Source of the DNA: Escherichia phage ECP2303
Sequence record: PP261279.1
Reading direction: 5' to 3' (one strand)
DNA length: 64,000 bases
Shown here: one piece after another, positions 60,716 through 61,623 of the stretch
Numbering within the stretch: position 1 is the stretch's first letter
How the letters are laid out: every line of letters starts with the position of its first letter
The notes under the pieces: model-generated
Databases searched by the model: none
What the model was told of the DNA's origin: nothing
The model's input: the letters and a program-made list of their open reading frames with translations, nothing else
Position numbers and translations under genes: made by a program

Positions 60716-60792
60716 TGGTCTCCACGGAGTGATTCGAACACTCGACCTCCTGATCCCAAATCAGGCGCTCTACCAAGCTGAGCTACGCGGAG
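60716..60792 (-). tRNA. tRNA-Pro (anticodon UGG)
   Basis: 77-nt cloverleaf folded by hand: 7-bp acceptor stem (one G-U), D-arm GCTC/GAGC, anticodon loop UUUGGGA, T-loop TTCGAAT, encoded CCA. Confidence 0.8.
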
Positions 60793-60803
60793 TATTTATT
60801 ATT

Positions 60804-60878
60804 TGGTGGCCCTGGGTGGAATTGAACCACCGTCTGGCGATTATGAGTCGCTTGCTTGAACCTTCCAGCTACAGGGCC
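60804..60878 (-). tRNA. tRNA-Met or Ile2 (anticodon CAU)
   Basis: 75 nt. Perfect acceptor stem GGCCCTG/CAGGGCC, T-arm GGTGG-TTCAATT-CCACC, anticodon loop CUCAUAA, CCA encoded. D-arm and the 27-43 pair are imperfect. Confidence 0.6.
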
Positions 60879-60879
60879 A

Positions 60880-60955
60880 TGGTGCTGATGGCAGGACTTG
60901 AACCTGCAACCTATTGATTACAAATCAATTGCACTGACAATTGTGCTACATCAGC
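60880..60955 (-). tRNA. tRNA-Thr (anticodon UGU)
   Basis: 76 nt. Acceptor GCTGATG/CATCAGC, D-arm GCAC/GTGC, anticodon loop UUUGUAA, T-arm GCAGG-TTCAAGT-CCTGC, CCA encoded. Confidence 0.8.
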
Positions 60956-60959
60956 AAAA

Positions 60960-61058
60960 GGTGCTAGGTGATGGAATCGAACCACCTATGTATTCAACGA
61001 CTACCTCGTCTATTTTCAGGATTAAAAATCCTCGCCCTTGCCAAAGGGCTTACCTAGC
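60960..61058 (-). tRNA. Atypical tRNA-like element (possible tRNA-Lys UUU with oversized variable region, or pseudo-tRNA)
   Basis: About 99 nt. Perfect 7-bp acceptor stem GCTAGGT/ACCTAGC, D-arm GCCC/GGGC and T-arm GGTGG-TTCGATT-CCATC. The central 46 nt holds a perfect hairpin AGGATT-TTT-AATCCT (readable as a loop UUUUUAA) plus a further 28 nt. Confidence 0.4.
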
Positions 61059-61156
61059 GCAATATGTTGACCATGTGGCTAGTCGGCGATGACGACTGTA
61101 ACATTTGATAATCCGGTTCTGCTTCCGGCTTTCGCTTAATTACAAGGTCAACAATG

Positions 61157-61247
61157 TGGCGGAGAGTAATGGAATCGAACCATCATCGAGTTATCCTCAA
61201 CGGGACGGTTTTCAAGACCGCTTGAGCACCATTGCTCCCTACCCTCC
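61157..61247 (-). tRNA. tRNA-Ser (anticodon UGA), class II
   Basis: About 91 nt. Acceptor GGAGGGT/ACTCTCC (one G-U), anticodon loop CUUGAAA, long variable arm, T-loop TTCGATT, CCA encoded. Confidence 0.65.
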
Positions 61248-61361
61248 TTTATAAATTACACTGATAATGACACTGATTTTCGAGCAGTTAGTGACTAGTA
61301 TAAACGACGATAAATATCAATGTCATTATCTGTATGATTTATGCATTTAAAAATATAAATT

Positions 61362-61448
61362 TGGTGGGGAGTGGTGGAGTCGAACCACCCGAGTCGCAAT
61401 GACAATAGATTTACAGTCTACACCGCTACCTCTACGGGATAACTCCCC
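61362..61448 (-). tRNA. tRNA-Tyr (anticodon GUA), class II
   Basis: About 87 nt. Acceptor GGGGAGT/ACTCCCC, anticodon loop CUGUAAA, long variable arm, T-arm GGTGG-TTCGACT-CCACC, CCA encoded. Confidence 0.65.
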
Positions 61449-61452
61449 AATT

Positions 61453-61527
61453 TGGCACCCCGTACTGGACTCGAACCAGTGTCAACGGCTTAGAAGGCCG
61501 CTGCTTTATCCACTAAGCTAACAGGGC
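61453..61527 (-). tRNA. tRNA-Arg (anticodon UCU)
   Basis: 75 nt. Acceptor GCCCTGT/ACGGGGT (two G-U), D-arm GCTT/AAGC, anticodon loop CUUCUAA, T-arm ACTGG-TTCGAGT-CCAGT, CCA encoded. Confidence 0.8.
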
Positions 61528-61623
61528 ACTGGGTGGCTTTCTTTTACACCTGAGCCGCCAGAAAAGGTGGGAGACCATGTTTATAATATTACACTGTTAG
61601 GCAAAGTTTGTCAAGAAAATATT

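Follow-up and report, generated by a model that had tools for sequence, protein, structure and literature searches.

Besides supplementing codons, phage tRNA clusters are now regarded as counter-defence arsenals. The species 1 and 2 RNAs of phage T4 (rnaC and rnaD, 139 and 119 nt) are unexplained small RNAs within such a cluster; both are stable and processed, and rnaC carries a tRNA-type T arm. Phage T5 encodes a tRNA-Lys(UUU) variant that neutralises PARIS (PMC11464382, PMC12409363), and T5 is reported to escape PARIS through its own tRNA-Lys (PMC11464382). The site of the PARIS nuclease AriB in tRNA-Lys is U36AAUC|A41, and an A41C change lowers cleavage (PMC12409363). A further point of comparison is the group formed by tRNA-Sec and its look-alikes, the selC* tRNA-Cys and the allo-tRNAs (PMC7609411), with acceptor/T domains of 8/5, 8/4 or 9/3. 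Described below is a conserved and horizontally mobile element of an rV5-like coliphage, belonging to an apparently new, well supported and undescribed family of five-armed tRNA-like RNAs, in which the tRNA elbow and acceptor end are retained and the decoding half is rebuilt.

The element within the Vequintavirus tRNA cluster

The window analysed, a stretch of 64,000 nucleotides of Escherichia phage ECP2303 (PP261279.1), stems from an rV5-like coliphage of the genus Vequintavirus. The 1.1-kb cluster region, in which the element is located, is 100% identical to that of Escherichia phage ECP2309 and 97–99.5% identical to dozens of Vequintavirus genomes. All tRNA genes called by ARAGORN in the cluster lie on the minus strand (Table 1), as does the element, whose RNA runs from its 5' end at 61058 to its 3' end at 60960 and comprises 99 nt including the discriminator A and CC. 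Judged by sequence, the sigma-70-like site ahead of tRNA-Arg is likely to be the start of a cluster transcript containing the element, and a scan of the cluster found no terminator-like sites interrupting it. Public labels for the element are inconsistent, ranging from tRNA-Lys (AAA), tRNA-OTHER, tRNA-TERM and tRNA-???(atcc) to a small hypothetical protein or nothing, an inconsistency that the element explains. It is missing from the six tRNAs given in the genome paper on rV5 (PMC3606486), and five tRNAs are counted in other papers on phages of this kind (PMC10698182). No description of an rV5 or Vequintavirinae tRNA-like RNA was found in the literature searched (including full text) or in Rfam.

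Table 1. Positions of the element, its parts and the neighbouring genes in the window.
Feature	Position	Strand	Evidence or remark
Sigma-70-like promoter TTGACA-17-TAATAT	61586..61614	-	consensus scan, pattern match only; ~60 nt upstream of tRNA-Arg
tRNA-Arg(UCU)	61453-61527	-	ARAGORN
tRNA-Tyr(GUA)	61362-61448	-	ARAGORN
tRNA-Ser(UGA)	61157-61247	-	ARAGORN
Five-armed tRNA-like element, whole gene	60960..61058	-	between Ser(UGA) and Thr(UGU); family model R1, 109.1 bits; ARAGORN; Rfam tRNA; minimum free energy (MFE) cloverleaf
Acceptor stem, 5' strand GCUAGGU	61052..61058	-	pairs with 60963-60969; 7/7 pairs kept in 34/34 sequences, 5 change on both sides
A8 A9 and D arm GCCC-UUUGGCAA-GGGC	61034..61051	-	3/4 D-stem pairs covary
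G26 and hairpin 1 AGGA-UUUUUAA-UCCU (alternatively 6 bp with UUU loop)	61018..61033	-	anticodon-arm analogue, 15 nt instead of 17
Invariant G and A-rich linker, G AAAAUA	61011..61017	-	3' of hairpin 1 in 34/34
Hairpin 2 (extra arm) GACGA-GGUAG-UCGUU	60996..61010	-	predicted here in 34/34 homologues
Linker GAAUACAUA	60987..60995	-	AUACAUA invariant in 34/34
T arm GGUGG-UUCGAUU-CCAUC	60970..60986	-	canonical T loop
Acceptor stem, 3' strand ACCUAGC, discriminator A73 and CC	60960..60969	-	sequence
tRNA-Thr(UGU)	60880-60955	-	ARAGORN
tRNA-Met/Ile(CAU)	60804-60878	-	ARAGORN
tRNA-Pro(UGG)	60716-60792	-	ARAGORN

The 5' half of the RNA reads GCUAGGU AA GCCC UUUGGCAA GGGC G AGGAUUUUUAAUCCU G AAAAUA, and the 3' half GACGAGGUAGUCGUU GAAUACAUA GGUGG UUCGAUU CCAUC ACCUAGC A CC. 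A first-pass annotation, made from the letters of the window, had proposed an atypical tRNA-like element of 99 nt at this place, and its existence is confirmed by identical ARAGORN boundaries, by the Rfam tRNA model RF00005 (35.5 bits) and by a family of homologues. The acceptor, D and T arms are perfect, as had been stated, with 7, 4 (extendable to 6) and 5 bp, respectively, and the 6-bp hairpin with a 3-nt loop (AGGAUU-UUU-AAUCCU) is present and can also be read as AGGA-UUUUUAA-UCCU, in agreement with the anticodon-loop reading UUUUUAA offered at the time. Equally, only CC of the CCA is encoded: the acceptor stem is followed by ACC and then U, whereas the adjoining Pro, Met and Thr genes do encode CCA. 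The claim that the central region is too long for a normal tRNA holds, but its size had been overstated, the excess over a class I tRNA being about 25–26 nt and not 30.

The tRNA predictors proposed as checks left this outline intact. ARAGORN kept the boundaries and reported 'tRNA-??? anticodon (atcc)' with no amino acid named, so that no standard tRNA with other boundaries emerged; the alternative arm on which this call is based (AUUUU/AAAAU, anticodon AUCC) is supported in no relative. The RF00005 score exceeds the gathering score of 29, although the neighbouring class I tRNAs reach 60–77 bits, and the alignment to this model contains a 26-nt insertion in the variable region and a deletion of one anticodon-stem position. 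Neither ARAGORN nor Rfam called a tmRNA at the element, and membership in that class was rejected. The MFE fold is a five-arm cloverleaf of −34.2 kcal/mol (z = −3.66), and none of 200 shuffled sequences folds equally well. The anticodon-like arm is separated from the T stem by 31 nt, of which the extra hairpin takes up 15, the linker before it 7 and the linker after it 9. Such a variable region is neither one of 4–5 nt nor a class II arm with short flanks, and the last five bases of the linker GAAUACAUA could represent variable-loop positions 44–48. The stem of hairpin 1, with 4 bp and a G–G apposition, is one layer short of an anticodon stem and can be closed to 6 bp with a triloop.

Homologues, covariation and selection

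By BLAST and pattern scans, 34 distinct homologues were found in five Vequintavirinae genera, uncultured relatives and one N4-like podovirus. The genera are Vequintavirus as the source genus, Avunavirus (Av-05), Seunavirus (PVP-SE1, SSE121, GAP31, 4MG and others), Mydovirus (Klebsiella phage DP and Proteus phage Mydo) and Henunavirus (Hena1 and pEp_SNUABM_01); several uncultured contigs of ~140–150 kb also carry a homologue, and the podovirus is represented by Ithacavirus UTK0002 only. Scored with a covariance model built from nine sequences (R1), the 34 homologues reached 79–119 bits versus at most 33 bits for every ordinary tRNA in the same loci. No similar sequence was found in 5,426 E. coli genomes, and a lone Sporosarcina match among 185,579 representative genomes was discarded after model R1 gave no confirmation. 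The gapped pattern GAAAATA..GAATACATA and the pattern CTTTGGCAAG..CG.GG..CC.G retrieved only chance matches from viral contigs. ARAGORN detected the homologues in none of the lineages other than Vequintavirus, and outside this genus the RNA is overlooked by tRNA finders.

In the alignment of 34 sequences fitted to the covariance model, all 714 pair cells of the 21 modelled pairs contain standard pairs (100%), and 12 of these pairs change on both sides; sliding the 3' partners by 1–3 columns as a control reduced pairing to 28–47%. The acceptor stem, D arm, hairpin 1 and T arm were recovered independently, with 10 covarying pairs, when 21 sequences were aligned by MAFFT and folded by RNAalifold. 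A 7/5 acceptor/T domain, the T loop and D/T elbow pairing are found in the element, with all pairs present in the 34 sequences. The D loop UUUGGCAA is accompanied by the T loop UUCGAUU in most sequences, and UUUGUCAA by UUAGAUU in the group of GAP31, 4MG, DP and Mydo; the elbow pair G19–C56 is exchanged for U19–A56 in 8 of 34 sequences. This exchange may be a single event, the group being one clade, but the covariation of the elbow pair nevertheless argues that the L-shaped elbow forms. A8 and U14 are (near-)invariant in the family in place of the canonical U8 and A14. Likewise (near-)invariant are U14 U15 and two A residues, through which the D stem can reach 6 bp around a loop of 4 nt, UGGC; the longer stem is predicted by RNAfold and by RNAalifold on the MAFFT alignment, yet U14–A21 and U15–A20 never vary. 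Hairpin 1 is bordered by a (near-)invariant G on either side and has an invariant core (G28–C41 and G29–C40), its covariation being found in the outer and loop-proximal stem pairs. Both linkers are retained throughout, the first as GAAAA (GUAAAA in two sequences) and the second as AUACAUA.

The stem sequences of hairpin 2 are unrelated between members, with one compensated change from A–U to G–C in Av-05. The hairpin behaves as a module, as differing hairpins occur on otherwise identical bodies (DP versus Mydo; L196 versus L201) and the loop motif GAACUAACAGUA is common to distant bodies. CUA and UUA in hairpin-2 loops were considered as stop anticodons and rejected, being explained by a C–G to U–G wobble change in an inner 3-bp stem. 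The 3' end consists of U73 and an encoded CCA in 26 of 34 homologues, of A73 followed by CC or CA in Vequintavirus, and of U or C followed by ACA in Avunavirus.

Within Vequintavirus, 6.1% of the columns of the element vary, compared with 1.3% in the Arg and Met, 9% in the Thr and Pro and 13–16% in the Ser and Tyr tRNA genes, and with 20–25% in the two flanking spacers. All helix substitutions observed within the genus keep pairing. Low column variation together with pairing-preserving substitutions indicates that the element is not a decaying pseudogene, and strong purifying selection and covariation also argue against the pseudo-tRNA that had been considered in the first-pass annotation. The least probable reading is that of a decaying tRNA pseudogene or of mere processing punctuation, retained because its RNase P sites would aid the release of adjacent tRNAs. 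It would agree with the loss of the encoded CCA and the variable 3' tail in Vequintavirus and Avunavirus, with the deletion of the element in two natural phages, and with the many annotators who ignore it or label it tRNA-OTHER. However, the share of variable columns in the element exceeds that of Arg and Met but lies below that of Thr, Pro, Ser and Tyr and far below that of the spacers, no helix substitution disrupts a pair, and the linkers and hairpin-1 core are invariant across genera, which would be needless for punctuation alone. At the level of aligned sequences, these data show that the family exists, that its helices covary and that purifying selection acts on it, and that the element is a conserved, structured, tRNA-shaped RNA gene within a tRNA operon.

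In Ithacavirus UTK0002 a block of Ser(UGA) and the element is located between tRNA-Ile and tRNA-Asn, and the sister phage UTK0001 has neither of them there. From this difference the element can be concluded to move with tRNA cassettes between unrelated phage families, and such mobility suggests that the machinery it works with is that of the host and not a phage-specific protein. Linkage was found for one gene only, phrog_9325 (a 202-aa coiled-coil protein), ~85 nt downstream of the element in some loci (L033, 5600-6208; L204, 8139-8744; L194, 3698-4306), and no partner protein was identified. As a partner phrog_9325 was rejected, since rV5-likes do not have it and many N4-likes have it without the RNA, pointing to synteny and not to an obligate relationship. 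No intact copy is found in V18 or in O157 typing phage 4, both of which possess Tyr/element chimeric deletions, and the element is therefore judged to be dispensable in culture. In both phages (L006, V18, 960-1045; L007, O157 typing phage 4, 940-1030) the 5' part of tRNA-Tyr is fused to the 3' part of the element, tRNA-Ser being removed as well; the deletions appear to have arisen via recombination between similar arms of the Tyr and element genes.

Decoding, aminoacylation and mimicry

With canonical tRNAs (RF00005) the element shares the 7-bp acceptor stem, the 5-bp T stem with its UUCGAUU loop, a D arm with a GG doublet, the G19–C56 elbow pair, the location among the genes of a tRNA operon and an Rfam score that exceeds the gathering score. 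It differs from them by A8/U14 instead of U8/A14, by an anticodon arm of 15–16 instead of 17 nt, by the hairpin and the two long invariant single-stranded linkers ahead of the T stem, and by its unconserved triplet. A 5-bp anticodon stem and 7-nt loop with U33 and a purine at position 37, conserved among orthologues, was not found. Across the family hairpin 1 has 4–5 bp and a loop of 5–8 nt. Vequintavirus has the loop UUUUUAA and Av-05 the loop UUUAUAA; Henunavirus, UTK0002 and uncultured clades have CAUCAAA or UAUCAAA, L033 has AAUCAAG, Seunavirus and Mydovirus have CCAUCCAG or, in one contig, CCUUCCAG, 4MG has CCAGCCAG, NINP13076 has CCCUCAAG, and one contig has GUGAUA. The triplet is UUU in Vequintavirus only, UAU in Av-05, and UCA, UCC or GCC in other genera. 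Since the loop differs by lineage and U33 is absent in most, neither U33 nor loop length nor triplet is conserved, and since the short hairpin breaks the anticodon-arm rules in most lineages, the RNA is most likely non-decoding. A normal tRNA of the same triplet coexists with the element in PVP-SE1 (tRNA-Gly(UCC)) and in L033 (tRNA-Lys(UUU)).

Counting against a non-decoding RNA, the Vequintavirus loop is a textbook 7-nt anticodon loop (U33, UUU, A37) and is accompanied by A73, the discriminator of LysRS. These features match the E. coli LysRS identity set and would be explained by a true, decoding tRNA-Lys(UUU) enlarged by a giant variable region, which would supplement lysine decoding or replace host tRNA-Lys destroyed by a nuclease. 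BASEL records do label the element tRNA-Lys with codon AAA, ARAGORN found no other tRNA-Lys in Vequintavirus, the Rfam tRNA score lies above the gathering score, and a precedent exists in the reported use by T5 of its own tRNA-Lys against PARIS (PMC11464382). This explanation is nonetheless unlikely: the anticodon stem is one layer short with its 4 bp and G–G apposition, and the loop can be closed to a triloop; A8 replaces U8; CCA is unencoded and the 3' tail drifts within the clade; and the combination of UUU and A73 is not kept in orthologues, Av-05 having UAU and U73 and the other genera unrelated triplets and loops of 6–8 nt, mostly without U33. The notion of a tRNA-Lys into which an insertion had been introduced, one of three put forward in the first-pass annotation, is opposed by the comparative data, as both the additional hairpin and the shortened anticodon-like arm date back to the ancestor of the whole family and UUU is confined to Vequintavirus.

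For relatives with a UCA loop the best Rfam match was tRNA-Sec (RF01852), with 31–39 bits at a gathering threshold of 47. Resemblances to the tRNA-Sec group comprise a D stem that may extend to 6 bp around a 4-nt loop, a U14–A21 pair combined with a purine at position 8, the long extra arm, and the UCA loop with U73 in many relatives of the element. In contrast to this group, the acceptor/T domain of the element is 7/5, its anticodon stem is shorter and not longer, G73 is missing, and its triplet is UUU instead of UCA. Membership in tRNA-Sec was therefore rejected on the grounds of the 7/5 domain, A73 or U73, and relatives scoring below the gathering threshold, and membership in the allo-tRNAs or the selC* tRNA-Cys on the grounds of the 7/5 domain and the short stem. 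Homology to T4 rnaC and rnaD was likewise rejected, as rnaC scored 11.6 bits with model R1 and rnaD was not matched by it; unlike the element, the T4 RNAs are longer and have no full cloverleaf core.

The conserved U73-CCA end of the other genera would also suit an aminoacylated RNA. A tRNA-like RNA that is charged but non-ribosomal, serving as amino-acid donor or sequestering a synthetase or EF-Tu, is a very doubtful explanation. In its favour, U73-CCA is strict in 26 of 34 sequences, G1–C72 occurs in 31 and C2–G71 in 33 of them, UCC, GCC or UCA loops with U73 recall Gly or Cys identity by textbook rules, and A73 appears in the sole lineage with a UUU loop. Yet the loop registers differ among clades, no linkage to a transferase or another partner gene was seen, and CCA conservation could merely reflect RNase P recognition.

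A trans-acting regulatory RNA on a tRNA scaffold, whose invariant linkers or loops would pair with host or phage RNA, must be considered highly improbable. Such a function would give a meaning to the single-stranded GAAAA and AUACAUA and to the clade-conserved hairpin-2 loop motifs GAACUAACAGUA, UUUUAGG and ..UGGAG., for all of which there is as yet no structural explanation. It is opposed by the exchange of hairpin 2 on otherwise identical bodies (L196 versus L201) and by the failure of loop-loop pairing in Mydovirus-type members; for the latter reason a kissing interaction between hairpins 1 and 2 (UCCA/UGGA; GCCA/UGGC in 4MG) was also rejected.

Of the tRNA-like regulatory or decoy RNA that the first-pass annotation had named as its last option, the functional tRNA-like RNA stands as the best fit to the ancestral hairpins, the selection and the covariation. 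The preferred reading, with a probability of roughly 0.45 and derived from sequence comparison, is that of a functional non-canonical tRNA-shaped RNA, a member of the five-armed family that would act as a non-decoding mimic occupying a host tRNA-binding factor. According to this reading the element would be transcribed together with the neighbouring tRNAs of the cluster, released by RNase P cleavage and 3' exonuclease trimming, and completed at its 3' end by the host CCA-adding enzyme. The predicted L-shaped fold would present an elbow (G19–C56) and an acceptor/T domain as in tRNA, combined with a D arm resembling that of tRNA-Sec, a shortened hairpin replacing the anticodon arm, and an extra hairpin hanging between the two invariant single-stranded linkers. 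As a tRNA mimic it would probably occupy a host tRNA-binding factor, and it represents a concrete candidate, open to simple tests, for a tRNA mimic whose role lies outside translation.

For Vequintavirus one may guess, more specifically, that the RNA stands in for tRNA-Lys as bait or surrogate in conflicts with anticodon nucleases such as PARIS AriB or PrrC, because hairpin loop and discriminator resemble those of tRNA-Lys(UUU). The loop and adjoining stem UUUUUAAUCC are equal to positions 33–40 of E. coli tRNA-Lys, which likewise has the discriminator A73. The element carries U36AAUC|C41 versus U36AAUC|A41 in the AriB site, a short match in which UAAUC could occur by chance. It resembles the T5 tRNA-Lys in being phage-encoded and having a UUU loop, and T5 Mut2 in the change from A to C relative to host tRNA-Lys at position 41, by the AriB site; it also adjoins a phage tRNA-Thr(UGU), tRNA-Thr being another AriB target class. 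In contrast, the T5 tRNA-Lys is a normal decoding tRNA of 76 nt, whereas the element has a truncated stem and an extra arm. A role against nucleases of tRNA-Lys, either as bait or blocker or as a crude nuclease-resistant surrogate, is possible on these resemblances. The specific scenario in which the rV5-like copy of an old mobile mimic family (loop UUUUUAAUCC, A73) was remodelled to bait or block AriB or PrrC is quite improbable; if true, the element would counter defence as an RNA alone, by a strategy other than the 'spare tRNA' one of T5.

Further features of the tRNA clusters

Several features of the neighbouring genes and spacers, all on the minus strand, were recorded in addition. The CAU tRNA is assigned to Met by ARAGORN and to a tRNA-Ile reading AUA in BASEL records; if the latter label is right, it is a lysidine-type tRNA-Ile2. 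The tRNA-Thr(UGU) has an odd D loop, AAUUGUCA, without a GG doublet and retains UAAUC|A, the sequence at which PARIS AriB cuts the host tRNAs for Thr and Lys; this gene could encode an escape variant. The Tyr–Ser spacer (61248-61361, 114 nt), 20% of whose columns vary among Vequintaviruses, contains a long imperfect hairpin (AUAAUGACAUUGAUAUUUAU...AUCAGUGUCAUUAU, −26.7 kcal/mol, z = −4.6) and a sigma-70-like site at 61326-61297, and could function in processing, as a cleavage site, or as part of an internal promoter. The spacer between tRNA-Ser and the element (61059-61156, 98 nt), in which 24.5% of columns vary, more than anywhere else in the cluster, can form a closing stem of 8–9 bp (UGUUGACC/GGUCAACA) that encloses two small hairpins (z = −2.2).

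In some Vequintavirus genomes (L207, L214, L218 and the records H10 and H14) an extra 130–380 bp is present at the Arg–Tyr junction by the 5' end of tRNA-Tyr (~61447), annotated in two records as an additional small hypothetical gene. Irregular ARAGORN calls were obtained in related clusters (L011, 5994-6079; L196, 524-598; L201, 451-525; L213, 7862-7934), namely tRNA-???(ggca), tRNA-???(ga) and, at a contig end, tRNA-Pyl(cta), and these clusters may hold further non-canonical tRNAs.
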